Source of the DNA: a virus
Taxonomy: Duplodnaviria > Heunggongvirae > Uroviricota > Caudoviricetes
Virus record (IMG/VR): IMGVR_UViG_649989924_000003
Length of the DNA stretch: 64,000 nucleotides
Strand: one strand, 5' to 3'
Shown: positions 14,854 to 45,059 of the stretch, in pieces
Position numbering within the stretch: the stretch's first letter is position 1
How the letters are laid out: every line of letters begins with the position of its first letter
Program-made: the position numbers and the translations under genes
Notes under the pieces: model-generated
What the model saw: only the letters and a program-made list of their open reading frames with translations
What the model was told of the DNA's origin: nothing
Databases searched by the model: none

Positions 14854-15696
14854 TTAACATTTTACAAACTCGTTAAATACTTTTATCCCCTCTTCATTTC
14901 CTAGATGATTTTTCAAACAGTCAAGCAGGTCCATTTTACTTTGATAAGCTTCAACTACATAATCACTAATAGATAATTTTTCCGCCTTTTCTTTTAACTT
15001 CCGACTTGGATACAGTCTTTTATTATTTGAATAATTTTCGAAACATTTTAGTGCCTTTTTATATTCCTTCAACTTATTTATTTGTTTTCCGTTTATTAAA
15101 AATTGAAATTCTCTATTAAATATATCCCATTTCAAATTCAATATATCATTACGAATCTCTTCATGTCTAAGTAATATTAACTTATCATAGTTAAGCTGAC
15201 CTAGTAATTGGCATAGCTCATTCTCATTTCTTATATACACTAGCATGTCCAAATCTATAAATTTTTCCAATCTCTTTATTAAGAGTGGTTCTTTTTGATA
15301 ATCAGTAAGTATTTGACTAATAGATACATTAGGTATGCAGTCAATGTTGATGCTATAATCACCTTTTAATATGTTTATGGCATCACCATATCCTTTATCT
15401 TTCGATACAATATAATACTCTTTGTTTTCTTTATATTTTAAAACCATCTTTGTTAGCTCAACAACAATACAAAAATCTAGTGAGTTCTTCTTTTGTTTAC
15501 TGGCTGTATGTGTATAAAGCCCTATATTTCTATGATTCATCAATGTATTCACACTATTAAAATCTATTTTTGCATTATTATTGCAAAAATAATAATAGTA
15601 CGCATTTTTATCAATTGGAAAAGGCAATTCAAAACCTACATTTTCACAATCAATAAAATAAACTTTCTTATATTTCTTGAATTTATTATTAAACAT
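14854..15696 (-). CDS. NYN/PIN-like nuclease domain protein (tentative)
   Basis: N-terminal VYFIDCENVG resembles the NYN motif vFIDgeNv; rest unassigned. Confidence 0.35.
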   Translation of the reverse strand: MFNNKFKKYKKVYFIDCENVGFELPFPIDKNAYYYYFCNNNAKIDFNSVNTLMNHRNIGLYTHTASKQKKNSLDFCIVVELTKMVLKYKENKEYYIVSKDKGYGDAINILKGDYSINIDCIPNVSISQILTDYQKEPLLIKRLEKFIDLDMLVYIRNENELCQLLGQLNYDKLILLRHEEIRNDILNLKWDIFNREFQFLINGKQINKLKEYKKALKCFENYSNNKRLYPSRKLKEKAEKLSISDYVVEAYQSKMDLLDCLKNHLGNEEGIKVFNEFVKC

Positions 15697-15767: not shown

Positions 15768-16340
15768 TTACTTTTTATGCTCTATCCCATTTAAATTCTC
15801 TAGCTTTTTTTTCATTAGCAAAGCTGTATTATATGCATCATAAGAAGCATGATGTTCAGTCCCCTTAAACTCTCCAAATTCCTTTTCAACAATCTGCATA
15901 AGTGATGGCAACTGCTGAAAGTTTTCCTGTTCCATGATATAGGATTGAAGGTCAATAAACGTCATCTCATTAAACTCCTTCTCGAATCCATTATCCTTAC
16001 AGTTCACTCTTAAAACTGCTGAATCTCTAGGCCCCCATGATACATATAAAGTCTCTAAATTATCCTTATGAATCCATTTCAGGAATTCTTTAAAAACTTC
16101 ACTAAAATTTATTGATGATAGTATTTCATCTCTTGAAACTCCTGTTAAGGACAAGATAGAATTGGAAGGAATGTTATGAGGTTTAATGATTCTTCTGAAT
16201 TTATCTCCTTCAATAATTCTTTCTCCATATCTTGTTGTATATATTTTCTTAGCTGCTAATTCAAATATTTCTGTCTTATTCCTTTCTTTTGAAAATTCTA
16301 AATCAATAACGATATATTGCCCAGCATAATCATAATTCAT
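15768..16340 (-). CDS. DEDDh 3'-5' exonuclease (DnaQ-like)
   Basis: Exo I YIVIDLEFS (D-x-E), Exo III HHASYDAYNT. Confidence 0.65.
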   Translation of the reverse strand: MNYDYAGQYIVIDLEFSKERNKTEIFELAAKKIYTTRYGERIIEGDKFRRIIKPHNIPSNSILSLTGVSRDEILSSINFSEVFKEFLKWIHKDNLETLYVSWGPRDSAVLRVNCKDNGFEKEFNEMTFIDLQSYIMEQENFQQLPSLMQIVEKEFGEFKGTEHHASYDAYNTALLMKKKLENLNGIEHKK

Positions 16341-23329: not shown

Positions 23330-23995
23330 TTACTTCATCGAAAAATCTAATATCTTTATCTGATTATCTCTTTCTTTTGTCTTTATATATAAATCAAAAT
23401 GATAAAACATTTCATATAATGAATCTTCCTCATAACAAAATAGGAATTTCTTCTCCTGCAAATCAAGTATGGAATATACCCCTGTACTATTCCCTAAGAA
23501 ACATTTTAATTCTATTTTTCCCATAGTTCCAAATAAAGGATTATAGTTAGCCAAATAACTTAGATAGGGAGTGAAAACAGCAAATTCACAAAAGCCATAC
23601 TCATCTATCAGAATATCTAAACAAAAAGATTCACCTTGATTCTTGTTTCTTAAAAGAGAAAAGTTATCACTATAATATAAAGAAGCCTTTGCCTTTTCTT
23701 TCTCCATTGGTAAAACATTCATTTTCTTTAGGCTTTTCAAAATCTTTTTAAAATCATCACCCACTACAAATAGATGCCGAATACTTCCATAATTCAATTG
23801 ATGGTTTCTTATAAGAATTTCTTCTTCAATACTTTTCAGGTATGTTTCTAGTTTCAAATCAAATAACCTCCATAAAAAAAGTGTCAGGCTTAGCACGACA
23901 CTTAAAAGTATAATATCTATATAGAATCTGCTTTGGCTCCTTTCTTTTCTTGATTTGTTTTTTGAATGCTCTTGATAACATCTATTTTTACACAA
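23330..23995 (-). CDS. N-terminally anchored membrane protein
   Basis: TM IDIILLSVVLSLTLFLW; overlaps the NTase gene 3' end by 79 nt, so the true start is likely internal. Confidence 0.45.
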   Translation of the reverse strand: MCKNRCYQEHSKNKSRKERSQSRFYIDIILLSVVLSLTLFLWRLFDLKLETYLKSIEEEILIRNHQLNYGSIRHLFVVGDDFKKILKSLKKMNVLPMEKEKAKASLYYSDNFSLLRNKNQGESFCLDILIDEYGFCEFAVFTPYLSYLANYNPLFGTMGKIELKCFLGNSTGVYSILDLQEKKFLFCYEEDSLYEMFYHFDLYIKTKERDNQIKILDFSMK

Positions 23996-24819
23996 TCTGA
24001 AACATAATCCTCAAAAAGAGAATTAAGTTTATCCAACGTTATATCATTAACTGTGAGAGAATTATTCTCCAGTAACTTGTTTATTTCACATTCGGCTTTT
24101 TTCACATATGTATCAGCCAAATAAATTGCTTCTGAATACTCTATTGGTGCTGTTTTATATTTCTTAATCTTATTTTTCTCTTTTATTGATAGAAAATCAA
24201 GATTCATAAGTGATTCAAAGTTTACTTTTCCATCTAATCTAGCAACTTCTGAGACCATTTCAGATAAACGTGCAAGATGATGCAACTGCTTTGGGTTATA
24301 TTTATAAATATCAAAAATTTCTTGTCCAGAATCTGTTCTCTTTTCAAGCCCCTTTCTTTTTTCATAAATAAATCCCTGCATTGACTTAACAAATCTTTTT
24401 ACATCCCGATTTGAGATATCGTCTCTCATTTCCTTCAAAGATTTTAAAAATAATAAAGTTCTAACACGTTGGTATTCCTTATTTACATAGAAATATGGGG
24501 TATATAATAACTCCAGATATGTTGGATTCATCTTATAAAGAAGATTTCCTAATAATCTAATATCTTTCACTTCAATATGACTCTTATCATTCATGACAAG
24601 TTCTTTAGAAATCATATTTGGTCTTTCAAGTAAGTCTTTAAGCGTTGGGATAATAAAGCACTTAACATCAAAATCACTGCTATAGTCGTCAGTATATTCG
24701 TCAAAACCATAATTCTGGGAACCTTGTAAACACATAAATGCAACATGATAATCAGTATTTTCTTTAAGCCAGTTCATTTTCTTTTTCATTTCATTTAATA
24801 CCATTTGTTTTTTTGCCAT
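23917..24819 (-). CDS. Pol-beta superfamily nucleotidyltransferase (ANT/CD-NTase-like architecture)
   Basis: GS-x16-DFDV motif (LQGSQNYGFDEYTDDYSSDFDVKCF) plus a ~200-aa helical C-terminal region. Confidence 0.5.
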   Translation of the reverse strand: MAKKQMVLNEMKKKMNWLKENTDYHVAFMCLQGSQNYGFDEYTDDYSSDFDVKCFIIPTLKDLLERPNMISKELVMNDKSHIEVKDIRLLGNLLYKMNPTYLELLYTPYFYVNKEYQRVRTLLFLKSLKEMRDDISNRDVKRFVKSMQGFIYEKRKGLEKRTDSGQEIFDIYKYNPKQLHHLARLSEMVSEVARLDGKVNFESLMNLDFLSIKEKNKIKKYKTAPIEYSEAIYLADTYVKKAECEINKLLENNSLTVNDITLDKLNSLFEDYVSDCVKIDVIKSIQKTNQEKKGAKADSI

Positions 24820-27373: not shown

Positions 27374-27940
27374 TTATTTATTCTGAATGAATTGATTATC
27401 CAGGTACTTTCTTACATTTGTTGCAGACTGCTCTTGAATCTCAATAATTTGGGCACCATTTATATAGGCTATTTCTTTTAGTTCCCTACTGATTCCCGTA
27501 TAATCTGATGCTCCTACTACCAATAATGTATCTCCTTTACCTAGTTGTGAAACCATTTGTATCGCCTTGTTGTAGTTTGGTGCAATATCCCCATAAAGAA
27601 TAGGTTTATCTACAAGTAATGATGCATTATCTAATTCTTCTTCATCTGGAAGTGTTCCATGTAATTCTAGGGCATCACTTCCAGCATCCTTATGTAAGCC
27701 ATCAATATTCATTGTTATAATAGGAATTTTATACTCAGCCAGAGCTATATGAGCATCATTGGGCTTTGCTTCATTCACATTCGCCTTTAATTGTTGGATA
27801 ACTTCATTATATTCATCAGGAAAACTATTGGCATATTCTCTTGTCAGTTTATTTCTCAAGCCTTTCTGATTTTCAAAGGTTGGTATACCAGATTCTTGAG
27901 AAATACCTGCGCCAGTAAATGCTATTATCACCTTTATCAC
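27374..27940 (-). CDS. Sir2-family NAD-dependent deacylase/ADP-ribosyltransferase lacking the zinc-binding module
   Basis: FTGAGISQESGIPTF, PNDAHIALA, ITMNIDGLHKDAGS..LELHG catalytic His, LLVVGAS; no CxxC pairs; only 188 aa. Confidence 0.75.
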   Translation of the reverse strand: MIKVIIAFTGAGISQESGIPTFENQKGLRNKLTREYANSFPDEYNEVIQQLKANVNEAKPNDAHIALAEYKIPIITMNIDGLHKDAGSDALELHGTLPDEEELDNASLLVDKPILYGDIAPNYNKAIQMVSQLGKGDTLLVVGASDYTGISRELKEIAYINGAQIIEIQEQSATNVRKYLDNQFIQNK

Positions 27941-32890: not shown

Positions 32891-32979
32891 TGATATTTTC
32901 TATAGAAATATTAGCATCTCCTACCAAATATTTTATGACGAACACTCACTTTTTGCGTGTTGCTTTATAAAATAATGAT

Positions 32980-33054
32980 GGTGATTGTAGCACAATGGTA
33001 GTGCGGTGGATTGTGGCTCCAACTATACGGGTTCGACTCCCGTCTTTCACACCA
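32980..33054 (+). tRNA. tRNA-His(GTG)-like with G-1, probably defective or chimeric acceptor end
   Basis: D-arm GCAC/GTGC, anticodon loop TTGTGGC, T-arm ACGGG-TTCGACT-CCCGT and CCA encoded. The acceptor has two T-T mismatches (5-68, 6-67) and discriminator A73 opposite G-1. Confidence 0.5.
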
Positions 33055-33456
33055 AAGAAGAAATTTATTATAATGAAAAGACATCTGGGCATTTTGTGCC
33101 CATAAGTGATTTCACAATACAAGAGAACAATAACTTTATCAGATATAATCAAAGAAGGTAAATTTTAAATCAGTCATAACAAAAGAACTTATGTATCTGC
33201 GAAGTTGTGCCAGTAACATGAGACCGACGTAAAAGGCAATAGGGGACAATGACTCATATCAATTGAGAAACAGAAGAAAAACTTGGAAAAGCCTATGTTA
33301 GACACTTGAAGAGTTAGGGTTCATAGGAAAGTTCGCAATATATTTATATTTCAATACTTAGATTTAAGTGAATTAGAAATAAAAAAGACTCTATAAATGA
33401 TATTCATTTATAGAGTAAGATTCTATTTATTTTTTTTTTGCTTATGAAGAATAATA

Positions 33457-33711
33457 CTATTTAAAACTACCCACACGAGAATAGAAATTAAATGAAAAGG
33501 ATATAAAAATCCATTTTTTATTTAATTCTTCTGTGATATGAGGAAGATATCCATTGAAATATACAAACAAATATATTGAAATAAAAGAAACTATTAATCC
33601 TCCCTCAATAAATATAATGTATTTTTTTAAATCATTTTTTTTAATAAGTTTTAGAATATTAATAAAGATTAATAATAAAGTAATGGTTTCAATTAAAAAG
33701 TAAAATATCAT
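33457..33711 (-). CDS. small 2-TM membrane protein
   Basis: 84 aa; overlaps the upstream secreted-protein gene stop (4-nt overlap). Confidence 0.4.
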   Translation of the reverse strand: MIFYFLIETITLLLIFINILKLIKKNDLKKYIIFIEGGLIVSFISIYLFVYFNGYLPHITEELNKKWIFISFSFNFYSRVGSFK

Positions 33712-34511
33712 TTTTTCACATAAGTTCCTTTTCCATACATTATTCCAGGGTCTTTAGCAATTGGATAAGTTGGCCATAAATCAGATGCAGAATGACCATA
33801 CCATTTTCCTTGATAAGAAGTATTATATGCTGCATGAATAAGTCCTACACCAGCTTCATGGGCTCTTATATATGGTCTTTGTTTCGTAAAAGTACTGTAT
33901 TCTTCTAATATAAGATATGCACCAATAAAAGTTGTTCCGCAACCAAGCCAAGTTGCAAAAGCTGTTGCTATACTCTTTTGTATTCCTTTGTTTATAAGAT
34001 GATTAACAGCTTTAGTTAAGCTCCATCCAGCAATTTCTGTAATACTACCTTTAAACACTGAAACATATGAACTTGAATTAAACCCTGCCACCATATTTTT
34101 TACTTCATTGTAAGTCATATATTCAACACTTTTCATCCATACATTACCATTACTATTAACATTTGGTGCTCCACTCGTATATTTCCAATAGGCACCATTT
34201 GGTGCAGTTCCGTGAGATGTACCACTTAAAATGCCATCAAATAAACCAAATGTTGATACTGTTGGAACTTGTAAAGACACTATAGCTTCTTTACCCTTTT
34301 CTTCTAAATACTGTGTAAACATCGGCGAGGTTTCTTCATTTAAAATATAAGGGTTTTCAGCACTTCCGTCACCAGCAATAATAGATTCAGATATTTCTTT
34401 TTCATAAATATCATCTAAATCTGCTGCGAATACTGGGGTTACATTTATAGCAGCAAAAGTTAATGCTAAAATTGATACCCCAACAAAAAAATTCTTAAAA
34501 CTGAGCTTCAT
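33708..34511 (-). CDS. secreted protein of unknown function
   Basis: Signal peptide ILALTFAAINVTPVFA; 267 aa. Confidence 0.5.
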   Translation of the reverse strand: MKLSFKNFFVGVSILALTFAAINVTPVFAADLDDIYEKEISESIIAGDGSAENPYILNEETSPMFTQYLEEKGKEAIVSLQVPTVSTFGLFDGILSGTSHGTAPNGAYWKYTSGAPNVNSNGNVWMKSVEYMTYNEVKNMVAGFNSSSYVSVFKGSITEIAGWSLTKAVNHLINKGIQKSIATAFATWLGCGTTFIGAYLILEEYSTFTKQRPYIRAHEAGVGLIHAAYNTSYQGKWYGHSASDLWPTYPIAKDPGIMYGKGTYVKK

Positions 34512-34705
34512 AATACATTCCTCCCTTTTGAAACTCTTGAAATAAGAGTTGATTTATAATATAAATGTAGCATGATTTAAAGAAATTGTAAATATGTAAC
34601 AGGTTTTTATATGATTTTATACTTTGCAAAAGAAAGTAATAAGTTAAGTATTATAAATTTAAATAAATAAAAGGTACTAAAGTATCTTAATGAGGTGATT
34701 TTTAA

Positions 34706-35308
34706 ATGATATCAAAAGCTGTTGAAGATGAATTTAATCATCTTGTCACTTCTCAAAAAAACTTTTTCAACGACCATTCAGAAAATGTGTCAATGTATAT
34801 AAAAAGATTTGTTGAGAGATTGGACAAGGATATCCCTTCGTTAAACTTAACTGATTTATTTAAGTTTCATGTTGAATTGGCGGCTCTTGTTCATGATATA
34901 AGGAAACTTGCTATTCCTTTGGAAATTCTTTCAAAAAAGAAAACATTAACAAATAGGGAATATCAGATTATTCAAAATCATACTCAATATGGAACATATT
35001 ATCTCTGTAATCTTTTTAAATACTGTAAAACAGATGAAGATTTTGATTTTGCAAGCGTTTGCCAAAATATTGTCTTATATCATCATGAAAGAAATAATGG
35101 GAGTGGATATTTGCAGAATTTAAAGGGAGATACTATCCCTTTAGAAGCAAAAATAGTTGCAATTGTAGATAGTTATGATGCTTTAACATCTCAAAGATGC
35201 TACAAGCAAACACTAACGACGCAAGAGGCTATTCAGAGATTATTGGAAGAATCTTCTCAATATGATGAAAGATTGCTGAAAGTATTTATAAGGAGTTTAA
35301 AAGAGTAA
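34706..35308 (+). CDS. stand-alone HD-GYP domain phosphodiesterase
   Basis: HD (LVHDIRK), HHERNNGSGY (HHExxDGxGYP-like), DSYDALTSQRCYK. Confidence 0.7.
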   Translation: MISKAVEDEFNHLVTSQKNFFNDHSENVSMYIKRFVERLDKDIPSLNLTDLFKFHVELAALVHDIRKLAIPLEILSKKKTLTNREYQIIQNHTQYGTYYLCNLFKYCKTDEDFDFASVCQNIVLYHHERNNGSGYLQNLKGDTIPLEAKIVAIVDSYDALTSQRCYKQTLTTQEAIQRLLEESSQYDERLLKVFIRSLKE

Positions 35309-35335
35309 AAAGAATAAAAGAACGGAGGTGAGATA

Positions 35336-35545
35336 ATGAAATATAAACTAGAAATACAGAGTAATGGATTCAATATTGAAGAAAGCAGAATCATTAAGGA
35401 AGTTAAGGATTCCTTAAAACATAAAAAAATAATTCTTAACAAGATTAATGATTTGGAAATCTATTATGTAACTGATAAAAAGATTATTTATTATAATGGG
35501 CTATATAATGATGAAATCGTTAAAGGTGAAATCTATATTATATAA
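35336..35545 (+). CDS. hypothetical small protein
   Basis: 69 aa, GGAGGTGAG RBS upstream. Confidence 0.4.
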   Translation: MKYKLEIQSNGFNIEESRIIKEVKDSLKHKKIILNKINDLEIYYVTDKKIIYYNGLYNDEIVKGEIYII

Positions 35546-35700
35546 ATCATGATAGAATACAACAGTTCTATTTTTCTTTATCCTAATAATCTATGGTAAA
35601 ATAGAATTATGGAAATCGTGAGAGGACCTGTATAATATTGGCTGTTCACTTGGAGAGGTGAATGGCTTTCTTTTCACGATTTTTATAAGTATTCAGTGAG

Positions 35701-35961
35701 GTGAAGACAATGTCATATACTGAAAAAAGACATAATAGAGCAGTTTCTAGAAAGAATGAATTCAGGATTATTGAAAGAAAGAAAAAGATTTTGGATAGTT
35801 ATGGTGAGGGAGTTTTAGAGGAATTCACAAATGGGCAAACACATAGACTTGCTAAAAGTAAAATCCATTGCAGCTGTCCAATGTGTCAGGCAAAGACAAG
35901 AGCAATTGGATGGAAACATTCTGATAAAGTAAAGATTGAAAGATGCAATTATGTAGAATAA
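35701..35961 (+). CDS. small basic Cys-pair protein
   Basis: CSCPMC plus C-terminal Cys; 86 aa. Confidence 0.4.
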   Translation: MKTMSYTEKRHNRAVSRKNEFRIIERKKKILDSYGEGVLEEFTNGQTHRLAKSKIHCSCPMCQAKTRAIGWKHSDKVKIERCNYVE

Positions 35962-36280
35962 AGTTCCATAGTTTATAAATATTATATTATGATAAGGAAA
36001 AGACGTATCAAATGAGGTATGTCTTTTTCTTTATATAATGACAGCAGAGGGAAAACAGATAAATATTTGTTGTTTTCATAAATATATATAAAAAATTATT
36101 GTAAAAATAACAAATAAATGATATAATAGACTCATAAAGAAAGGACAGGTGCAAATAAATGACAAAGCATATAAAAAAAGAATGCACCTGTCTGCATTCT
36201 TTTTTTGAGGTGAAGACATGAAATAAGAAAGTTTAACAAATAAGAATGAAACAATTGAATAAAAAGAAAGGAGGTAGATT

Positions 36281-37738
36281 ATGTTAGATTTTTTAATGAA
36301 TACTGGAGTGATTACAAGTGTTTTAGTAGGAGCTCTTATTTTAGTGATTGTATTGACAGGATATGTCAAGGCATCACCAGACACTGCGTATATTATTTCA
36401 GGACTGAGAAAACAACCAAAGGTTTTAATTGGGAAAGCAGGAATTAAAATTCCATTTCTAGAGAAGAAAGATGAATTGAATTTACAGTTAATTCCCATTG
36501 ATGTCAAAACGTCTAGTGCTGTACCAACTGCTGACTATATCAACATTAATGTAGATGCAGCAGTCAATGTCAAGATTAGTGATAACAGTGAACGTTTAGG
36601 ATTAGCTGCACAGAACTTCTTGAATAAGAGAGTTGATTATATTGCCAATGTTGCAAGAGAAGTTTTGGAAGGGAATATGCGTGAAATCGTAGGACGTATG
36701 AATCTTGAGGAAATGGTTTCCGATAGACAGAAGTTTGCTGAATTGGTAAAGGAGAATGCTGAACCTGATTTGGCAAAGATGGGTTTGGATATTGTTTCGT
36801 TTAATGTTCAGAATTTTGTTGATGGTAATGGTGTTATTGAAAATCTTGGGGTTGACAATATTGTAAAGATTCAAAAAAATGCAGCAATTTCTCGTGCTGT
36901 GAGTGAAAGAGATATTGCTCAGGCTCAGTCAAAAGCATTCCAAGAAGCAAATGATGCAAAAATTGCTGCTGAAACAATCATTGCAGAAAAGAATAATGAA
37001 TTAGCTATCAAAAAAGCTGAATTAAAGAAGACTGCAGATGCAAAACAAGCTGAAGCAGATGCAGCATATACAATTCAGCAGGAACAGTCTCGTAAAGCAA
37101 TTGAAATTGCAACAGCTGACGCAAATATTATGAGACAGGAAAAAGAAATTGAATTGAGACGTAAAGACGTTGAAGTTACAGAACAGGAACTTGATGCAAA
37201 AATCAAGAAGCAAGCTGAAGCAGAAAAATTTGCTGCACAGCAAAGAGCAGAGGCTGATTTATATGCACGTCAGCAAAATGCAGAAGCGTGGAAATTTGAG
37301 CAGGAAAAAGAAGCTCAAGCCAAGAAAGCACAAGCTGAAGCCTTAAAATATCAAATGGAGCAGGAAGCCTCAGGTATCCGTGCAAAAGGGGAAGCAGAAG
37401 CCAAGGCTATTGAAGCCAAAGGTATTGCTGAAGCTGAAGCATTAGATAAAAAAGCTGAAGCGATGAAAAAATATGGCGAAGCAGCAATTGCAGAAATGTA
37501 CTTCAATGCATGGCCAAAAGCAGTTGAAGCGGCAGCCAAACCACTTGAAAAGATTGGCAACATTACAATGTATGGTGAAGGGAATAGCGCAAAACTGATT
37601 GAGGATGTCATGAAGACAACTCATCAAGTAAATACAGGAATGGAACAAGGGTTGGGCTTAAATCTTAATCAGATTCTTGGGTCATTAGTTGGAGTGAAAG
37701 CATTGGAAAAAATGAGTAATGATAAGAGAGAGGATTAA
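36281..37738 (+). CDS. flotillin-like SPFH/band-7 protein
   Basis: N-terminal TM, SPFH core, long Ala/Glu/Lys/Gln coiled-coil repeats. Confidence 0.8.
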   Translation: MLDFLMNTGVITSVLVGALILVIVLTGYVKASPDTAYIISGLRKQPKVLIGKAGIKIPFLEKKDELNLQLIPIDVKTSSAVPTADYININVDAAVNVKISDNSERLGLAAQNFLNKRVDYIANVAREVLEGNMREIVGRMNLEEMVSDRQKFAELVKENAEPDLAKMGLDIVSFNVQNFVDGNGVIENLGVDNIVKIQKNAAISRAVSERDIAQAQSKAFQEANDAKIAAETIIAEKNNELAIKKAELKKTADAKQAEADAAYTIQQEQSRKAIEIATADANIMRQEKEIELRRKDVEVTEQELDAKIKKQAEAEKFAAQQRAEADLYARQQNAEAWKFEQEKEAQAKKAQAEALKYQMEQEASGIRAKGEAEAKAIEAKGIAEAEALDKKAEAMKKYGEAAIAEMYFNAWPKAVEAAAKPLEKIGNITMYGEGNSAKLIEDVMKTTHQVNTGMEQGLGLNLNQILGSLVGVKALEKMSNDKRED

Positions 37739-37772
37739 TACCTCTCTTTTTAATAAAATATGAGGTTCAAAA

Positions 37773-38093
37773 ATGTGGAAAGAGAAAAAAGAAAGTTATG
37801 TATTGGAGTATTGCTACCAAAATGGTTTCGTTTCAATACCCTTCAAATTCTCCAAAAGTCTTACCTTAAAGATTGTAACTTATACAGATTTAGAAGTCAC
37901 TGGTCTTAGGACAGCAAAACTCCTTTGCAATTTGAAGGGTGCAGGCAAGGTTGCATTATGGAAGATAAAACAAGATATTAAGGCAAAAGAAAATTATCTC
38001 ATAACAGATGAAAAATATCTTCAAGATGCTTGTTACAATCTTTATTTATCTTCTCATATTCTTTACATAGTGAAAATGGATACAAAAAAATAA
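37773..38093 (+). CDS. hypothetical protein
   Basis: 106-aa ORF. Confidence 0.4.
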   Translation: MWKEKKESYVLEYCYQNGFVSIPFKFSKSLTLKIVTYTDLEVTGLRTAKLLCNLKGAGKVALWKIKQDIKAKENYLITDEKYLQDACYNLYLSSHILYIVKMDTKK

Positions 38094-38108
38094 ATAAGAG
38101 GAAATAGG

Positions 38109-38183
38109 ATATGAATGATGGTACCCAATATAGGAATCGAACCTATAATTGATGGTTCGTAGCCATCTGTTTTATCCATTAGA
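38109..38183 (-). tRNA. tRNA-Arg(ACG)
   Basis: Cloverleaf read by hand: acceptor ACCCAAT/ATTGGGT, anticodon loop CTACGAA, T-arm ATAGG-TTCGATT-CCTAT, CCA encoded. Confidence 0.55.
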
Positions 38184-38191
38184 CTAATTGG

Positions 38192-38265
38192 GTATGTTTT
38201 TTGGAGGCCTCGACCAGACTTGAACTGGTATAAATAGGGTTGCAGCCTATTGCATAGCCATTCTG
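38192..38265 (-). tRNA. tRNA-Cys(GCA)
   Basis: Anticodon arm ATAGG-CTGCAAC-CCTAT, T-arm ACCAG-TTCAAGT-CTGGT. Confidence 0.55.
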
Positions 38266-38319
38266 CCACGAGGTCGCAAATATTTTCTTTTTGTTTTACA
38301 ATATTTTAACTTTATATTT

Positions 38320-38649
38320 TCATTTAATGACCCATTGAAGTTTTGAATCATCAGTAAAATATAATTCTCCTCCATAATCAGAGCACCAACTTTTGTCCAA
38401 ATTGACTTTTTCTTCATTGTTTTTCAATTCTATTTCATAATCTTGTTTCATCTGAGAAACTAAATTATCTTCTCGTGAAATTGAAATATTACTCTTCAAA
38501 GTTTTGTTTATAATAACATTTCCACTAATAAGACTATCTTTAAATTCATCTATAGTGGCTTTTTTAATGATTTTTTTATATATTTTTTTATTTTGCACTT
38601 TCATAACAACAAATCTGTAATACTTTGCGTATTTGAAAATTAGGCTCAT
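38320..38649 (-). CDS. hypothetical protein (insertion within tRNA array)
   Basis: 109-aa ORF. Confidence 0.4.
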   Translation of the reverse strand: MSLIFKYAKYYRFVVMKVQNKKIYKKIIKKATIDEFKDSLISGNVIINKTLKSNISISREDNLVSQMKQDYEIELKNNEEKVNLDKSWCSDYGGELYFTDDSKLQWVIK

Positions 38650-39400
38650 ATCTTCCTGCTAAATAAATAATTATTGGGTTTACATAGTTACTAAATGTAA
38701 AAAGTCTTTTTTCTTTATCATCTAATTTTAGAGGAAATAAAATGATATAATCATATTTTTTATTTTCATCTAATTCACATAAAGAAGAACAAGTGTCCTC
38801 AACTCCATTATAGTTATAGATAATTTCATAATTCAAAAAATAATTATTTATAAGTTTTTTAATATCCTCATACTCTTTTATTTCTTTCAAAGGCTTTGCT
38901 TTCATTTTCTTTTGATTAAGAACATCAATAATAATATTTATGTATTCTTCTGTGACATTTTTATTATTAATAAATATAGGCTCAGATGTAAAATCGGTTG
39001 TACGATATAACTGAATTGTTTTTTCTCTATATATTTCATTTAAAACGTTAGCTACTTTATCAATATGATTGACATAAATATCCTTTTTCAAGAAAATATT
39101 TTCAATATAAAACTTTAAAACATCTTGCCAATTATTATTAACAAATAAATTTTCCATATCTTCTGGTGATGTAACATAAAAAAGTGTTTTTAACTTATCC
39201 ATCAAAATCTCTGATTTTATAAATGAGTCTTTTGTAAACATACTACTTAATTTATTATAATTGTCTATAGTTTCCTCTACATTTTCTCGAAGATGTTTTC
39301 CATGAAAAGCTTCTTCAAGGTTATTATAATATTTTTCCTTATACAAAAAACCATCTGAATATGTCGGTGACAGATTTAACTCTTTAATATTTGTTATCAT
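38588..39400 (-). CDS. hypothetical protein (insertion within tRNA array)
   Basis: 270-aa ORF. Confidence 0.45.
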   Translation of the reverse strand: MITNIKELNLSPTYSDGFLYKEKYYNNLEEAFHGKHLRENVEETIDNYNKLSSMFTKDSFIKSEILMDKLKTLFYVTSPEDMENLFVNNNWQDVLKFYIENIFLKKDIYVNHIDKVANVLNEIYREKTIQLYRTTDFTSEPIFINNKNVTEEYINIIIDVLNQKKMKAKPLKEIKEYEDIKKLINNYFLNYEIIYNYNGVEDTCSSLCELDENKKYDYIILFPLKLDDKEKRLFTFSNYVNPIIIYLAGRYEPNFQIRKVLQICCYESAK

Positions 39401-39676
39401 ATAACACCTCTCTCGTCCATCTAAAGGCTTTATAGTAGCCTTTTAAAAACTAGTTAAAATAAATCAATACTCCTTAAAAACCCCTGCTGGCATCTGCCAT
39501 ATATATTCTGGAGTGCTTTTCAGTATTCTGACTTACCATGCCAATATCAGAAGTTTGATGAACTGAAAAGAATTTTTTGAATAAGGTTTTACATGGATAT
39601 TTATATACCTTATACCTGTAGAGGAAAATTTTAGAATATGTTATCAGCAAAAACAATTTATATCCTAAATAATATT

Positions 39677-39704
39677 TGGTGCTCATAGTAGGATTTGAAC
39701 CTAC
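39677..39704 (-). pseudogene. Orphan tRNA 3' fragment (T-arm + acceptor 3' strand + CCA)
   Basis: Minus strand GTAGG-TTCAAAT-CCTAC-TATGAGC-A-CCA with no matching 5' half. Confidence 0.5.
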
Positions 39705-39716
39705 ATATGGGCATTT

Positions 39717-39792
39717 TGGTAGGAATAATAGGAATCGAACCTATATTGCACGATTATCGGTCGTGAGTACTCACCAGTTGTACGATACTCCT
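39717..39792 (-). tRNA. tRNA-Ile(GAT), C33 anticodon loop
   Basis: D-stem GTAC/GTAC, anticodon arm CACGA-CCGATAA-TCGTG, T-arm ATAGG-TTCGATT-CCTAT. Confidence 0.5.
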
Positions 39793-39795
39793 ATA

Positions 39796-39869
39796 TGGTA
39801 TCCGTTGGTGGTAATGCTCCACCGTCTTCAACTTGTAAGGATGATGTTTTCCTTTTAAACTAAACGGAT
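39796..39869 (-). tRNA. tRNA-Val(TAC) with atypical T-loop
   Basis: Acceptor ATCCGTT/AACGGAT, anticodon loop CTTACAA, T-arm GGTGG-AGCATTA-CCACC. Confidence 0.45.
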
Positions 39870-39870
39870 A

Positions 39871-39947
39871 TGGTCTCGATAAAAGGATTTGAACCTTTAC
39901 AAACTCGGTCCCAGGCCGAGTGCACTACCAAATTATGCTATATCGAG
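39871..39947 (-). tRNA. tRNA-Pro(TGG), C33 anticodon loop
   Basis: Anticodon arm CTCGG-CCTGGGA-CCGAG, T-arm AAAGG-TTCAAAT-CCTTT. Confidence 0.55.
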
Positions 39948-40074
39948 AGGAAAGAGAATATCTCTTCCGTATTTATGCTGGACCAGACATAATATGTTTA
40001 TCTATCACTACAATAGACTGGACTCCGAGATACTTCCCAATATCTTATCTTTACCTTATTTCATGAAGGAAATT

Positions 40075-40148
40075 GGCACCTCTTGAAGGAATTGAACCCT
40101 CATCGTGGAGGTAGAAACTCCATGCTCTATCCATTAAGCTAAAGAGGT
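40075..40148 (-). tRNA. tRNA-Arg(TCT)
   Basis: Acceptor ACCTCTT/AAGAGGT, anticodon arm TGGAG-TTTCTAC-CTCCA. Confidence 0.6.
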
Positions 40149-40351
40149 AATAATGATAACTATTTATCGCAATAGCCTTAGCATCTGACTCCTTATACAG
40201 AATATACTTTCATTTTCTATTCTTTCATGCACTTTCAAATATACTAAGAAAATATATATTTTCGTCAAAGCCAACCTCCTAGCTCGTGACTATCTGCATC
40301 CATTGCTTATGCAGTTTCCACATGGTTTTATTTAATAAATTATATAATCAT

Positions 40352-40428
40352 TGGTGGACGATATAGGATTCGAACCTATGACCAGTCGGTTATGAGCCGA
40401 CAGCTCTGACCATCTGAGCTAAACGTCC
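40352..40428 (-). tRNA. tRNA-Met(CAT), elongator type
   Basis: Anticodon arm GTCGG-CTCATAA-CCGAC, T-arm ATAGG-TTCGAAT-CCTAT. Confidence 0.55.
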
Positions 40429-40440
40429 ATATTTTTAAAA

Positions 40441-40519
40441 TGGTGGAAACTTTGGAATTCGAATCCAACTGATTTCCTGTGTGCAAAACAGGTGACCACA
40501 CCTAGCAGTCCCAGTTCCC
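40441..40519 (-). tRNA. tRNA-Ala(TGC)
   Basis: G3-U70 wobble pair present, anticodon arm CCTGT-TTTGCAC-ACAGG. Confidence 0.6.
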
Positions 40520-40531
40520 AATAATACATTA

Positions 40532-40619
40532 TGGCGCTGACTATAGGACTCGAACCTATGCTAGATTTACATCTAGTACGGTTTAGCAAACCGCTGCTTT
40601 ACCACTCAGCCAAGTCAGC
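40532..40619 (-). tRNA. tRNA-Ser(GCT), class II
   Basis: Long variable arm; anticodon arm GCGGT-TTGCTAA-ACCGT. Confidence 0.6.
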
Positions 40620-40627
40620 AAAAATAT

Positions 40628-40714
40628 TGGTACTCCTAATGGGAATCGAACCCATACGAGCTTTTGCCCACAGAAGTTTAAGTTCTGTATGTCTACCGAT
40701 TTCATCATAGGAGT
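40628..40714 (-). tRNA. tRNA-Leu(TAA), class II
   Basis: Anticodon arm CAGAA-CTTAAAC-TTCTG, long variable arm. Confidence 0.6.
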
Positions 40715-40717
40715 ATT

Positions 40718-40802
40718 TGGTCTTCTCGAAGAGATTTGAACTCTTACGCTATAAAGCACTAGTTTCTAAAACTAGCATGTCTACCTATTCCATCACGAGA
40801 AG
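40718..40802 (-). tRNA. tRNA-Leu(TAG), class II
   Basis: Anticodon arm CTAGT-TTTAGAA-ACTAG. Confidence 0.6.
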
Positions 40803-40807
40803 ATGAT

Positions 40808-40884
40808 TGGTGGTTTCAGATGGACTTGAACCAACGCTACGAGAAGTTTCAGTTATCTGCTCTACCAGATTGAGCTATGAAACC
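40808..40884 (-). tRNA. tRNA-Phe(GAA)
   Basis: Anticodon loop CTGAAAC, D-arm GCTC/GAGC. Confidence 0.6.
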
Positions 40885-40898
40885 AGATGATAAAATAT

Positions 40899-40973
40899 TG
40901 GCACCTCTGTAAGGAGTCGAACCTTAAGTTTTGGTTTTGGAGACCAATGTGTTCCCTTTTACACTACAGAGAT
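40899..40973 (-). tRNA. tRNA-Trp(CCA)
   Basis: Anticodon arm TTGGT-CTCCAAA-ACCAA. Confidence 0.6.
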
Positions 40974-40975
40974 AT

Positions 40976-41052
40976 TGGCATCAGGGAGAGGGCTCGAACC
41001 TCTAAATGTGGGAGTCAAGGTCCCATGTGCTTACCAGTTTCACCACCCTGAT
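40976..41052 (-). tRNA. tRNA-Gln(TTG), C33 anticodon loop
   Basis: Anticodon arm TGGGA-CCTTGAC-TCCCA. Confidence 0.55.
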
Positions 41053-41068
41053 ATCTAAATAGATTTAG

Positions 41069-41141
41069 TATACTTAGAAGTGGTTGAACCCTCATACCCT
41101 CTATTAGAAGTCGAGTGCATTACCAACTTTGCTACAAGTAC
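41069..41141 (-). tRNA. Degenerate tRNA-like gene (anticodon TCT, Arg-like), no encoded CCA
   Basis: Acceptor pairs only with two G-U wobbles; mismatches in anticodon and T stems. Confidence 0.3.
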
Positions 41142-41166
41142 AATATGTAATTATGAAATTTTTTAA

Positions 41167-41253
41167 TGGTGGGCCCCCCTGGATTCGAACCAGCAGCGTT
41201 TCTAATGTCACAGATTTACAGTCTGCTTCCTTCACCAATTTGGATAGAGACCC
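41167..41253 (-). tRNA. tRNA-Tyr(GTA), class II
   Basis: Anticodon loop CTGTAAA, long variable arm. Confidence 0.6.
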
Positions 41254-41260
41254 ATATGTT

Positions 41261-41347
41261 TGGCGCTCAGTGAGGGACTCGAACCCCCAAGTCCTTTCAG
41301 ACCAACTGTTTTCAAGACAGCACGACTACCAATTATCACAACTGAGC
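41261..41347 (-). tRNA. tRNA-Ser(TGA), class II
   Basis: Anticodon arm GCTGT-CTTGAAA-ACAGT. Confidence 0.6.
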
Positions 41348-41530
41348 GTTTTTAAATTATAAATATTGATTGACCTCACAACACTCCTATGAAATCACCC
41401 AATGGTCTATTGACAAGAAAGATATCATCTCAGAGTTTTTAATTATCTACTGTAAACTTTTTTTTACAATAATAAATAATCACAAGCTATACTTTTATGG
41501 TAGATACTGGAGAAAGTAACTAATGATTAA

Positions 41531-41604
41531 TGGTATCCGAGGTGGGAGTCGAACCCACGATATCTGATAGAGCGCTAAAGCGTAAACTGCTTGCCAACTC
41601 GGAC
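41531..41604 (-). tRNA. tRNA-like gene with canonical acceptor and T-arm but no canonical D/anticodon arms (isotype undetermined)
   Basis: T-arm GTGGG-TTCGACT-CCCAC and acceptor GTCCGAG/CTCGGAT+A+CCA are clear. The body contains an AAGC-AGTTTAC-GCTT hairpin that does not fit cloverleaf positions. Confidence 0.3.
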
Positions 41605-41609
41605 ATATT

Positions 41610-41686
41610 TGGCGGACCCTACAGGACTTGAACCTGTGACCCTTACGTTAACAGCGCATCGCTCTAACCAACTGAGCTAAAGGTCC
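41610..41686 (-). tRNA. tRNA-Asn(GTT)
   Basis: Anticodon loop CTGTTAA, D-arm GCTC/GAGC. Confidence 0.6.
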
Positions 41687-41707
41687 ATAAAATAATAAAA
41701 TGATACT

Positions 41708-41782
41708 TGGAGTGGGTAAAGGGAATCGAACCCTCATCCTCTGCTTGGAAGGCAGATATACGAACCATTATACTATACCCAC
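41708..41782 (-). tRNA. tRNA-Gly(TCC)
   Basis: Anticodon arm TCTGC-CTTCCAA-GCAGA. Confidence 0.6.
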
Positions 41783-41786
41783 AATA

Positions 41787-41862
41787 TGGTGCCATCTGAG
41801 AGATTCGAACTCCCAACCAACTGATTACAGGTCAGCTGCACTTCCAGTTGTGCTAAGGTGGC
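41787..41862 (-). tRNA. tRNA-Thr(TGT), C33 anticodon loop
   Basis: Anticodon arm GCTGA-CCTGTAA-TCAGT. Confidence 0.55.
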
Positions 41863-41866
41863 AAAT

Positions 41867-41941
41867 TGGCGGAACATAGGAGAATTGAACTCCTATCTCT
41901 TGATAGACAGTCAAGTATATTTTCCATTATACGAATGCTCC
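41867..41941 (-). tRNA. tRNA-Asp(GTC)
   Basis: Anticodon arm CTTGA-CTGTCTA-TCAAG. Confidence 0.6.
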
Positions 41942-41942
41942 A

Positions 41943-42019
41943 TGGTTGCAGAGGCAGGATTTGAACCTGCGACCTCAGGATAATGAGTCCTGCGAGCTAC
42001 CAAACTGCTCTACTCTACG
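41943..42019 (-). tRNA. Initiator tRNA-fMet(CAT)
   Basis: C1-A72 mismatch, D-arm GAGC/GCTC, anticodon arm CAGGA-CTCATTA-TCCTG, 3' end GCAACCA. Confidence 0.6.
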
Positions 42020-42125
42020 ATATTTCACAAAAGAAAAAGTTCCTCATACGAGAAACAATAAAAAAGAAAATTTAAAATATCTCGTTTATTGTTTGTTTTT
42101 CACTTCCTTTCGTGATTTCATAGTT

Positions 42126-42154
42126 ATTATAACATATAATATAAAATTAGTCAA
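42126..42154 (-). promoter_or_regulatory. Consensus SigA-type promoter, copy 5 (minus strand), about 100 nt upstream of the tRNA array
   Basis: Reverse complement TTGACTAATTTTATATTATATGTTATAAT. Confidence 0.6.
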
Positions 42155-43346: not shown

Positions 43347-45059
43347 TTATTCATCCCACCAGTTATAATTTTTAATGTCATCTTCAATCTGATGAGAGCT
43401 TGAGGATGATTGTTTTTTTATTTGCCTGATTGCTTCACTTTCTTGAATTCCCGGAGAAAACCATGCTGGTTTATCTGAGTTGTTCTTCAAATCATTAAAC
43501 AAAAATGTTAGAAAGCAGTTTATTTGATTATCTGGAGTCTTGAAAGAATATCCAGAGGTTTTTATTCTATCAAGAATATTAAGCATAATTGAATCAAAGG
43601 ATGCCTGATGAATAATAAGTTTTTCAAGATTCATTATTAACAAATCCCCTTCTATCATTTTCGCTTCTTTACTCATATAGAATTTCTTAAAGAGCTTCAG
43701 TTTATTGAAGCAGGCATTGAGAAAGTCTTTATCAGTGTTTTCTATAAAGATTGAATTATAAATAGAAGAATTGATTTCATTAATTAAATTAATTAATAAA
43801 GAATCGTTTTTATTATTTTCAGTATAAGTATTTAAAGTTTTATTAATGTTGATATCTTTTTCGCTATTTTGTTTCTTTCTTTTTGAAGAAATTGTTTCTT
43901 TCATATCTGATGAAATGATGGCTCTTGATGGAGTCTTGATATCTGTCAAATTCTCTGAATTATGGCTCTTTTCAATTTTTTCTTCATCATCACAAGTCAA
44001 ATTCACGAAATTGTGGCTCTCATCTAATATGTCATAATCATCAAATTGTGGCTCACTGGATTCTTTCATGTCTATATCTTCAAGGTATTGCTTTACAAAT
44101 TGATATATTTTATCTGGGAAGTTTCTTGTTCCATTTTCCCATTTGGAATATGTCTGTTTATAAAGGCTTAATGAATATTTTTTATTTATAGCCTCTACTA
44201 TCTGTTTTTGGGTTAAGTTATGCTTTAAGCGAAGCTGTTTAACATATGTATAATTTCTTTTATTTTTATTGATAATTAAATCTTCTTTGAGTTGGTCCAT
44301 GCGACTCTTTAGATATAGTTTTTTGTTTTTGCTGTCTAAGCTTTCAAATTCTTCAACATTATCTTCAAAGTTGAAAAGTTTTAATAGATAGAAACGGGTA
44401 TCCTGTGAAAATGCTCTATATTCAAATAATAAACCACAGGCTTTTAAAAGATATCTTCCTCTTTTTAATGCTGACTGTCCAAGCCCTAATTTCTTTTCCT
44501 GAGTTTCAAGAGATTCTTGGAAGTATATTCTTTCTTTGTCATCCACAAAATAATTCATTTGAGATAAACACATTGTATCAAAGTATATAGAATATTGAAG
44601 TTTTGTAGCTAGAGGTAGATTGTTATAGATATCATCAAATAATTCATTTGGAAACCTAAAGAAATTGTAACTATCTAAATCTGTTTCATAATAAAACTCA
44701 TCTGTTTCATCTTTTTTATTATAGTTATATAGATATATCTTATTATTTCCAACGCTTCGCTTATAGTTGATGAGTCCAACCCTCTTTAAATCTGCTCTTG
44801 CTCGGCAACATGTTGATTCACTAATTTTTAATTTATTCATTATATCAGAATCTGAGTAGATAATATAAGGACCACTGTTATCTTTATAAGTGGTAATGAT
44901 ATATCTGTTTAAATAGAGAGAATACATAAACTTTGCTGGAACAGAAAGTTTTTTGAATCTATTATCTGAAAATAAGACTTTTGGTATAGATAAGAAAGCA
45001 TCTATTTTTGTTGTATCATTAATATTATAGTATTTAGATTCTTTATCCATAGAAAACAC
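43347..45059 (-). CDS. RepA_N-type replication initiator with internal HTH
   Basis: N-terminal region (LSIPKVLFSD..LSVPAKFMYSLYLNRY...RVGLINYKR) resembles Firmicute RepA_N proteins. Central HTH LTQKQIVEAINKKYSLS. Confidence 0.55.
   Translation of the reverse strand: MFSMDKESKYYNINDTTKIDAFLSIPKVLFSDNRFKKLSVPAKFMYSLYLNRYIITTYKDNSGPYIIYSDSDIMNKLKISESTCCRARADLKRVGLINYKRSVGNNKIYLYNYNKKDETDEFYYETDLDSYNFFRFPNELFDDIYNNLPLATKLQYSIYFDTMCLSQMNYFVDDKERIYFQESLETQEKKLGLGQSALKRGRYLLKACGLLFEYRAFSQDTRFYLLKLFNFEDNVEEFESLDSKNKKLYLKSRMDQLKEDLIINKNKRNYTYVKQLRLKHNLTQKQIVEAINKKYSLSLYKQTYSKWENGTRNFPDKIYQFVKQYLEDIDMKESSEPQFDDYDILDESHNFVNLTCDDEEKIEKSHNSENLTDIKTPSRAIISSDMKETISSKRKKQNSEKDININKTLNTYTENNKNDSLLINLINEINSSIYNSIFIENTDKDFLNACFNKLKLFKKFYMSKEAKMIEGDLLIMNLEKLIIHQASFDSIMLNILDRIKTSGYSFKTPDNQINCFLTFLFNDLKNNSDKPAWFSPGIQESEAIRQIKKQSSSSSHQIEDDIKNYNWWDE

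Follow-up and report, generated by a model that had tools for sequence, protein, structure and literature searches.

Uridine 33 is among the most conserved nucleotides in biology, since its U-turn presents the anticodon, and the locus described here raises the question of why four transfer RNAs (tRNAs) of a single dense array should carry cytidine at this position instead. The array lies within a stretch of 64,000 nucleotides (nt), hereafter the window, that is recorded in IMG/VR as IMGVR_UViG_649989924_000003 and corresponds to the final 64 kb of scaffold GL636582.1 (189,856 bp) of assembly GCA_000186525.1, from the gut bacterium Coprobacillus cateniformis. It occupies positions 38119-42019 of the minus strand and comprises 21 of the 22 tRNA genes called by ARAGORN in the window, a tRNA-Val(UAC) with U33 (39796-39869, minus) that was found only by Rfam and by ARAGORN with relaxed settings, and several remnants. 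From the sequence comparisons presented below, the four C33 genes very probably encode functional tRNAs in which C33 is selectively maintained. The best explanation of the whole, that these functional tRNAs maintain U33C and thereby evade enzymes acting on the anticodon loop, falls only just short of an even chance.

All tRNA calls were made with ARAGORN or with the Rfam tRNA model (RF00005, gathering score 29 bits), and the C33 genes, loops and 5-bp stems proposed by the initial annotation were confirmed. These genes, all on the minus strand and all with C32-C33, are tRNA-Ile(GAU) (39717-39792; arm CACGA-CCGATAA-TCGTG; C33 at 39759; Rfam 58.3 bits), tRNA-Pro(UGG) (39871-39947; CTCGG-CCTGGGA-CCGAG; C33 at 39914; 61.4 bits), tRNA-Gln(UUG) (40976-41052; TGGGA-CCTTGAC-TCCCA; C33 at 41019; 51.9 bits) and tRNA-Thr(UGU) (41787-41862; GCTGA-CCTGTAA-TCAGT; C33 at 41830; 59.1 bits), the plus strand reading G at each of the four C33 sites. 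Each gene matches RF00005 over its full length (model positions 1-71) and above the gathering score. In the ARAGORN structures and the tally of invariant positions, each retains a 7-nt anticodon loop, the T-loop GTTCRA, G18G19 and U8, and minimum free energy folding recovered the cloverleaf for the Ile and Pro tRNAs. All four nonetheless violate the U33 rule of canonical elongators. The earlier remark that these four differ from their neighbors in the array also stands, U33 being present in the remaining 18 ARAGORN tRNAs of the window and in the Rfam-only tRNA-Val. Four C33 tRNAs among 23 in the window compares with a background of ~2.4% in other mobile-element tRNAs (P = 0.002).

Several trivial origins of this pattern could be discarded. 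The initial annotation had raised the prospect of a better fold with U33; when all 5-bp stems with loops of 6-9 nt were enumerated, a 5-bp stem with a 7-nt loop was obtained only in the canonical register, and none of the registers with a 7-nt loop placed U at position 33. An alternative anticodon register is hence ruled out. Assembly or sequencing error is ruled out by the identity of the four tRNA sequences in three independent metagenome assemblies (L002-L004; L-numbers are our labels for fetched contigs). Finally, the four genes are not recent paralogues of one another, their mutual identity of 51% being close to the 48-49% seen for other pairs in the array.

The initial annotation had also allowed that the C33 genes might be pseudo-tRNAs, a reading to which we add its variant, the rescue of such genes by RNA editing in which C33 is deaminated to U33 after transcription. 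Relics are indeed present in the array. A decayed orthologue of the family tRNA-Glu(UUC) (41531-41604, minus) scores 27.1 bits with Rfam, under the gathering score; a defective second tRNA-Arg(UCU) (41068-41141, minus) has a G.A mismatch, lacks CCA and is no longer called by ARAGORN in the variant assemblies L003 and L004; and a bare 3' tRNA half (39679-39716, minus) abuts the tRNA-Ile. The array is devoid of any intact Glu or Lys tRNA, both of which are carried by its relatives. The Glu relic serves as an internal control for the appearance of a pseudo-tRNA: aligned to the Glu tRNAs of relatives L164 and L165, it has an intact acceptor stem and T arm and scrambled D and anticodon arms. True decay of this kind is unlike the C33 genes, which form perfect cloverleaves, encode their CCA ends and keep what we take to be synthetase identity features (G1-C72 and C2-G71 in Thr; C1-G72 and A73 in Pro). 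Their other invariant positions are kept, their stems evolve by compensatory change, and C33 is retained in relatives with only 37-52% identity in the RepA_N protein, so that the pseudo-tRNA option finds no favor here. As for editing, searches of the window proteins turned up no deaminase, and C33-to-U editing is not known in bacteria. Both versions are considered very improbable.

The relatives in question were recognized through the family marker, a replication-initiator-like gene with RepA_N and helix-turn-helix (HTH) domains (43347-45059, minus; Pfam RepA_N, 5e-15), whose full-length homologues in public assemblies display 31-52% identity. Most of the fetched homologue contigs share a neighborhood in which an RNase_T exonuclease, a SpoVG-like and a RuvC-like gene are followed by RepA_N and small open reading frames (ORFs), and the tRNA array follows the RepA_N region wherever a relative's contig extends far enough. 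The family relatives include the metagenome contigs L163, L164, L165, L166, L171 and L239, the last being a contig of 208,810 bp that was retrieved by a tRNA-Ile probe of metagenomes. Other routes were less productive: the 270-amino acid (aa) ORF of the array (discussed below) returned only near-identical copies, and no matches were obtained with an exact tRNA-Ile pattern or, in GTDB and IMG/VR, with RepA_N peptide patterns.

Across seven family arrays, C33 is present in 19 of 111 tRNAs, and A33 or G33 in none. The affected isoacceptors are Ile(GAU) (4/4), Gln(UUG) (5/6), Pro(UGG) (4/6), Thr(UGU) (3/6), Cys(GCA) (2/4) and Phe(GAA) (1/3), with zero cases among the remaining ones; the Ile count leaves out an L164 orthologue that has A32-C33 and an insertion. 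The Ile orthologues of both L171 and L239 keep C33, as do another Ile gene, that of L165, and the insertion-bearing L164 gene, and Ile C33 is fixed in every family member despite ~20% tRNA divergence. Pro retains CC at positions 32-33 in L163, L164 and L165 within a compensated stem (CTTGG-CCTGGGA-CCAAG), and has UU in L239 and L171. The C33 of Gln is kept in L164 and L165 (both with the arm CGGGA-CCTTGAC-TCCCG), in L239 and, with U32, in L166, L171 having U33. Thr carries C33 in L163 and L165 and U33 in L164, L239 and L171; L171 carries C33 in Phe and Cys instead. C33 and U33 therefore switch on evolutionary time scales, within a restricted set of isoacceptors. In the L164 tRNA-Ile(GAU) orthologue (15867-15965, plus), the 23-nt insert is situated just after position 38, within the anticodon loop, and may be intron-like or inactivating.

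The relatives that retain C33 possess syntenic arrays, and the orthologous tRNAs are 58-95% identical to the window genes. Compensatory double changes affect three pairs in Thr, eight in Gln and 13 in Pro. Of the cells compared, 94-100% are paired, and unconstrained loop positions in these same tRNAs have changed repeatedly. Such compensatory evolution in genes that are not paralogues points to working genes under purifying selection, with C33 as part of their inheritance. Furthermore, its retention in diverged relatives implies that C33 has withstood the AT mutation bias that goes with a genome of 30% GC. As judged from these alignments, U33C is a heritable and maintained state and not a form of decay, and we infer that these tRNAs are expressed and take part in translation.

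Is position 33 special, or are these tRNAs relaxed throughout? ARAGORN structural annotation was parsed in the family as well as in three background sets, and at positions 8, 53, 54, 55, 56, 58 and 61 the family deviates no more than the background. Position 33 deviates in 19 of the 111 family tRNAs (17%), and position 37, normally a purine, is a pyrimidine in 11 (10%). The excess of C33 is pronounced against both the first background set (odds ratio 9.2, Fisher p = 6e-9) and a larger one of 41 in ~1737 (17% versus 2.4%, ~7-fold; odds ratio 8.5, p = 4e-10), and pyrimidine-37 is likewise enriched (11/111 versus 9/639, Fisher p = 2e-5), with the proviso that these family statistics count related arrays as independent observations and that the background loci, retrieved by tRNA-based probes, are not a random sample. 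In the window, U37 is found in tRNA-Asp(GUC) (41867-41941, minus; loop CTGTCTA) and in an initiator-like tRNA-Met(CAU) with C1xA72 (41943-42019, minus; loop CTCATTA). The Asp-U37 loop is present in all six of six family members, and further U37 cases are the initiator-like Met loops CTCATTA and CTCATTC (also in L171) and the Glu loop CTTTCTA (L164 and L165). The remodeling is limited to the two positions that flank the anticodon, 33 and 37.

This pattern bears upon the main rival explanation, near-neutral drift, by which the auxiliary tRNAs of an array would relax position 33 from U to any pyrimidine wherever the modification enzymes do not need U33. We judge drift to be rather unlikely. It accounts less well for the conservation of the other invariant positions, which equals that of the background, for a family rate some seven times that of other mobile-element arrays, for the co-occurrence of C33 with a conserved U37 anomaly, and for the presence of Ile C33 in all family members despite their divergence and a strong AT bias. 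On the other hand, the toggling of Thr among close relatives (C in L163 and L165, U in L164) is what drift predicts, as is the fact that only the mildest substitution, C, is observed.

The occurrence of C33 outside the family was surveyed with probes that left position 33 free (Y), the matches being filtered with ARAGORN. For Ile(GAU) with the same stem, C33 was present in 12 of 111 matches in IMG/VR and in seven of 114 in metagenomes. The corresponding IMG/VR figures were 2/24 for Thr(UGU) with the same arm, 0/103 for Gln(UUG) and 5/120 for Pro(UGG). In the last case C33 always occurs as CC, the states at positions 32-33 being UU in 113, CU in two, UC in none and CC in five, and this coupled change from UU to CC is unexpected from independent neutral changes. 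A 17-nt Thr pattern had returned 27 apparent C33 matches in IMG/VR, 25 of which were chance occurrences in protein-coding DNA and two real tRNAs; because of these coincidences, subsequent scans used the T arm as their anchor, followed by an ARAGORN filter.

Among the non-probe tRNAs of the fetched loci, 41 of about 1,737 (2.4%) carry C33, and this low level, spread over many unrelated mobile-element arrays, is again compatible with drift. When the 70 loci with at least 10 tRNAs are considered, 46 have no C33 tRNA, 21 have one, two have two and a single locus has three, making the window's four the extreme. C33 is also kept within other phage families of IMG/VR (16 loci), in Met(CAU) (CCCATAA or CCCATGA), Ser(UGA) (CCTGAAA) and Cys(GCA) (CCGCAAC), the Met C33 being located in one of two tRNA-Met(CAU) genes. 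In 56 of 60 cases C33 is accompanied by C32, as compared with 74% C32 among U33 tRNAs (p = 2e-4).

The distribution among isoacceptors is informative in another respect. The tRNAs with GUN anticodons (Asp, Asn, His and Tyr), which are of the queuosine (Q) type, never carry C33, neither in the background (0/246 versus 41/1491 for all others, p = 0.003) nor in the family (0/20 versus 19/91, p = 0.02). Bacterial tRNA-guanine transglycosylase (TGT) requires U33-G34-U35, and the absence of C33 from Q-tRNAs fits this need, which suggests that selection favors the modification and use of these tRNAs, and that the distribution of C33 has been shaped by selection on working tRNAs. It should be added that an absence of this kind fits exclusion by constraint, as drift would have it, and not positive selection.

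C33 is not confined to mobile elements. A scan of GTDB, with one genome per species, for C33 tRNA-Thr(UGU) with the common CTGA/TCAG stem returned 39 loci, in 33 of which ARAGORN called such a tRNA, many of them within tRNA arrays of metagenome-assembled genomes (MAGs). An orthologous C33 tRNA-Thr, with compensatory acceptor-stem change, is common to six Mycoplasmataceae/Ureaplasma-like species, and in one of them the gene is located between an AP endonuclease gene and rpoA, a chromosomal housekeeping context. In four low-GC Clostridia MAGs the tRNA-Thr is part of a common Thr(C33)-Glu-Lys cluster, and in both groups it appears to be the chromosomal gene. The chromosomal cases in Ureaplasma-like MAGs indicate that C33 elongators are compatible with cellular translation and that the cost of C33 can be small, a point in favor of drift. 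The initial annotation's statement that U33 is near-universal thus needs qualifying, given the recurrence of C33 in mobile-element arrays and in the chromosomal tRNA-Thr of two low-GC lineages.

These chromosomal genes also bear on the idea that the element simply mimics its host, in that the Ile, Pro, Gln and Thr tRNAs of the C. cateniformis chromosome, or its ribosome or modification machinery, already use or prefer C33. The two lineages with chromosomal C33 tRNA-Thr(UGU), the Mollicutes-like and the Clostridia MAGs, are related to or resemble the neighborhood of the host, as this idea would have it. However, no Erysipelotrichaceae genome is found among the 39 GTDB matches for C33 tRNA-Thr with the CTGA/TCAG stem, the orthologues in related elements have U33 in some cases and C33 in others, and the tRNAs of the element are AT-rich, unlike typical chromosomal tRNAs of Firmicutes. 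Host mimicry is, in our opinion, improbable.

A slightly more improbable proposal still is that of altered decoding, in which C32-C33 would loosen the loop and change the range or speed of wobble, for example through four-way reading by U34, so that a minimal array of one tRNA per box could serve all codons or tune the translation of the element's genes. U34 is indeed present in many of the C33 tRNAs that read family boxes (Thr UGU, Pro UGG, Ser UGA and Gly UCC), and C33 tends to occur with C32. A C33 tRNA-Thr is also carried by the Mollicutes-like genomes, in which each box depends on a single U34 tRNA. Yet Ile(GAU), Gln(UUG), Cys(GCA), Phe(GAA) and Met(CAU) read split boxes, in which an expanded wobble would amount to misreading, and these are among the commonest carriers of C33.

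With these alternatives in view, we return to evasion. The initial annotation had offered escape from anticodon nucleases as one reading, and the confinement of the deviations to the anticodon flanks fits it. We infer that C33 is kept because it alters recognition by an enzyme of the anticodon loop; that such evasion is the reason for C33 is a tentative proposal, to which we accord somewhat less than an even chance. Positions 33 and 37 would be determinants of contact, cleavage or modification for such enzymes, candidates for which are tRNases of the host or of competing elements, or modification enzymes whose products are read by tRNases. The C33 copies would stay usable while the U33 tRNAs of the host are attacked or marked. 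The cost would be a weaker U-turn, and a pyrimidine, usually together with C32, may be retained as the substitution best tolerated by the ribosome. Two precedents from Escherichia coli concern this part of the loop: CdiA-CT EC536 cleaves tRNA-Ile(GAU) exactly between C32 and U33 (PMC11724271), and TsaBCDE is unable to install N6-threonylcarbamoyladenosine at position 37 (t6A37) on a U33C tRNA (PMC8887486). Should its Firmicute counterpart share this property, the Ile and Thr tRNAs with C33 are predicted to be without t6A.

A number of observations weigh against evasion, beyond the sampling of family and background mentioned above. Colicin E5, for which any pyrimidine 5' of GU is sufficient, cuts C33 substrates like those with U33 (PMC1635277), and the gamma-toxin of Kluyveromyces lactis cuts a C33 stem-loop with wild-type kinetics (PMC2275089), so that C33 is no general shield. 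The C33 isoacceptors share no obvious known nuclease target set. The toggling of C33 between close relatives and the chromosomal C33 tRNA-Thr fit near-neutrality as well. In addition, PADLOC found no tRNase or tRNA-targeting defence in the window. Pfam, PHROGs and PADLOC searches of the window proteins revealed no PrrC, RloC, VapC-type tRNase, colicin-like tRNase, RNA ligase or deaminase, and yielded only an uncharacterised PIN7 protein 24 kb from the array and an RlaP nucleotidyltransferase.

A broader version of evasion may also be entertained, although we think it unlikely: C32-C33 and pyrimidine-37 might constitute a general camouflage of the anticodon flanks in phage and plasmid arrays, directed against a putative class of tRNases that depend on U33 or on a purine at 37 (R37), or against the host modification enzymes (for t6A and possibly others) that place the marks read by such tRNases. 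Were this true, the C33 isoacceptor set of each element family would report which host tRNAs are attacked. In a more extreme version of the same idea, the element itself would destroy the U33 tRNAs of its host and substitute its own resistant set.

Comparison with known systems helps to place the array. Phage tRNAs have been proposed to evade tRNases by anticodon-loop mutations in the survey of van den Berg et al. 2023 (PMC10264068); the tRNA-Lys, tRNA-Thr and tRNA-Asn of T5 resist AriB of PARIS through substitutions around the cleavage site (PMC12409363), and a phage tRNA-Tyr acts against a retron effector (PMC11555353). The C33 tRNAs have in common with these their location in mobile-element arrays, an otherwise canonical structure, differences in the anticodon arm and conservation within an element lineage, and the array may function like such nuclease-evading tRNAs or possibly be an instance of them. 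The known evaders, however, are phage-encoded and have isoacceptor-specific changes of loop or stem at a mapped cleavage site, whereas here the near-universal U33 and purine-37 are affected, and the carrier has plasmid-type genes. Moreover, two characterised nucleases (colicin E5 and gamma-toxin) ignore U33C.

With 22 genes in 3.9 kb (5.6 per kb), the array falls within the definition of a tRNA array unit, namely at least 20 tRNA genes at a density of at least two per kb (PMC4758250). Such units, or L-arrays, have been described on plasmids and mobile elements by Tran et al. 2016 (PMC4758250) and Santamaria-Gomez et al. 2021 (PMC8421152) and in mycobacteria (PMC5966550, PMC12803027). They share with the window array at least 20 dense tRNA genes covering most amino acids, a mobile replicon and some degenerate copies, and have been proposed to provide translation backup under stress or anti-defence, the latter being discussed for mycobacterial plasmid arrays (PMC12803027). 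In the searchable text of these four papers, neither a conserved C33 nor a pyrimidine-37 is reported. The window array differs from the published units in belonging to a new, RepA_N-marked family from gut metagenomes of Erysipelotrichaceae type.

The textbook example of a natural C33 tRNA is the initiator tRNA-Met of multicellular eukaryotes, which is functional and whose C33 prevents the bacterial and yeast enzymes from making t6A37 (PMC8887486). That initiator binds the P site directly, whereas the C33 tRNAs described here are bacterial-type elongators that need decoding in the A site. The chromosomal C33 tRNA-Thr of the Mollicutes-like and Clostridia MAGs has the same arm (CTGA-CCTGTAA-TCAG), kept across species with compensation in the acceptor and T stems; it is a single housekeeping gene beside rpoA and not part of a mobile array, in a survey that covered Thr only. 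Searchable literature yielded nothing relevant on C33 in phage or plasmid tRNAs. Judged against that literature, three observations appear to be new: elongator tRNAs in which C has taken the place of the near-universal U33, a change conserved across a family of elements; the recurrence of C33 at ~2.4% in phage and metagenome arrays, where it is linked to C32, absent from Q-tRNAs and frequent in Ile, Met, Cys and Ser; and a chromosomal C33 tRNA-Thr in some Mollicutes-like lineages.

As regards the carrier, the window proteins recur on hundreds of nearly clonal metagenome contigs, with maximum lengths clustered at 190-206 kb, roughly the size taken for the element. The GTDB representative of the host does not contain it. 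Its GC content is ~30% overall and rises to 40% in the tRNA array. Replication and partition functions are represented by the RepA_N-HTH gene, ParA/ParB and topoisomerase III. The window also encodes a DinB-type polymerase, the RlaP nucleotidyltransferase, SIR2, CobT/CobS-like proteins, RecD-like helicases, RecJ-like and DEDDh exonucleases, signal and prepilin peptidases, an IetA-like ATPase and the PIN7 protein, and the 10 kb of upstream flank contain phage-like accessory genes, namely a LAGLIDADG endonuclease, a weak Apyc1-like match and numerous small ORFs. No capsid, terminase or tail genes were seen in the 64 kb plus the 10-kb flank. IMG/VR scans with two window proteins as queries returned no relatives, and blastn against cultured phages and PLSDB plasmids gave generic tRNA-level similarity only. 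The carrier is a large extrachromosomal element, a megaplasmid or phage-plasmid with phage-like accessory genes and an array of 22-24 tRNA genes, for which the designation phage is unproven. Possible RNA- or defence-related genes are situated away from the array: the PIN7 gene beside an RNase_T exonuclease gene, the gene for RlaP (an RNA-repair-associated nucleotidyltransferase) beside DinB, SIR2 and the IetA-like ATPase gene, jointly covering 14854-15696, 15768-16340, 23917-24819 and 27374-27940 on the minus strand and 11799-13439 on the plus strand. In relatives, the genes adjoining the array include a PTH2-type peptidyl-tRNA hydrolase and an NTP_transf_2 nucleotidyltransferase (L164 16147-16542; L166 21564-21917).

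The array itself is split by the 270-aa ORF (38588-39400). Approximately 105 nt upstream of its first tRNA is a promoter-like site on the minus strand (42126-42154), TTGACT-17-TATAAT with an extended -10 TG, which with 11 of 12 consensus matches is the best of the region, although it is a consensus match only. Between this site and the first tRNA is a terminator-like hairpin followed by a T run (42039-42056, minus), which may be a leader/attenuator or a chance match. The tRNA-Ala(UGC) (40441-40519, minus) is an odd member of the array, at 79 nt with G8 and an unusual D arm; it was called by ARAGORN and missed by Rfam at E<=0.1, and Ala genes with an identical anticodon and loop occur in L171 and L239. 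Adjacent to the array, a 5.2-kb segment (32922-38123) with a tRNA-His, a 267-aa ORF, HD-GYP and flotillin genes and a 106-aa ORF is inverted in the L004 variant. The inversion breakpoints share a 5-bp inverted repeat, TACCA/TGGTA, the right-hand copy of which is the CCA end of tRNA-Arg(ACG).

The U33 rule is, on this evidence, softer than its textbook version. The C33 tRNAs of this element family provide a testable handle on why mobile elements carry tRNAs at all and, should C33 prove to be a mark of nuclease resistance, its distribution among the isoacceptors could predict unknown tRNA-targeting defences.

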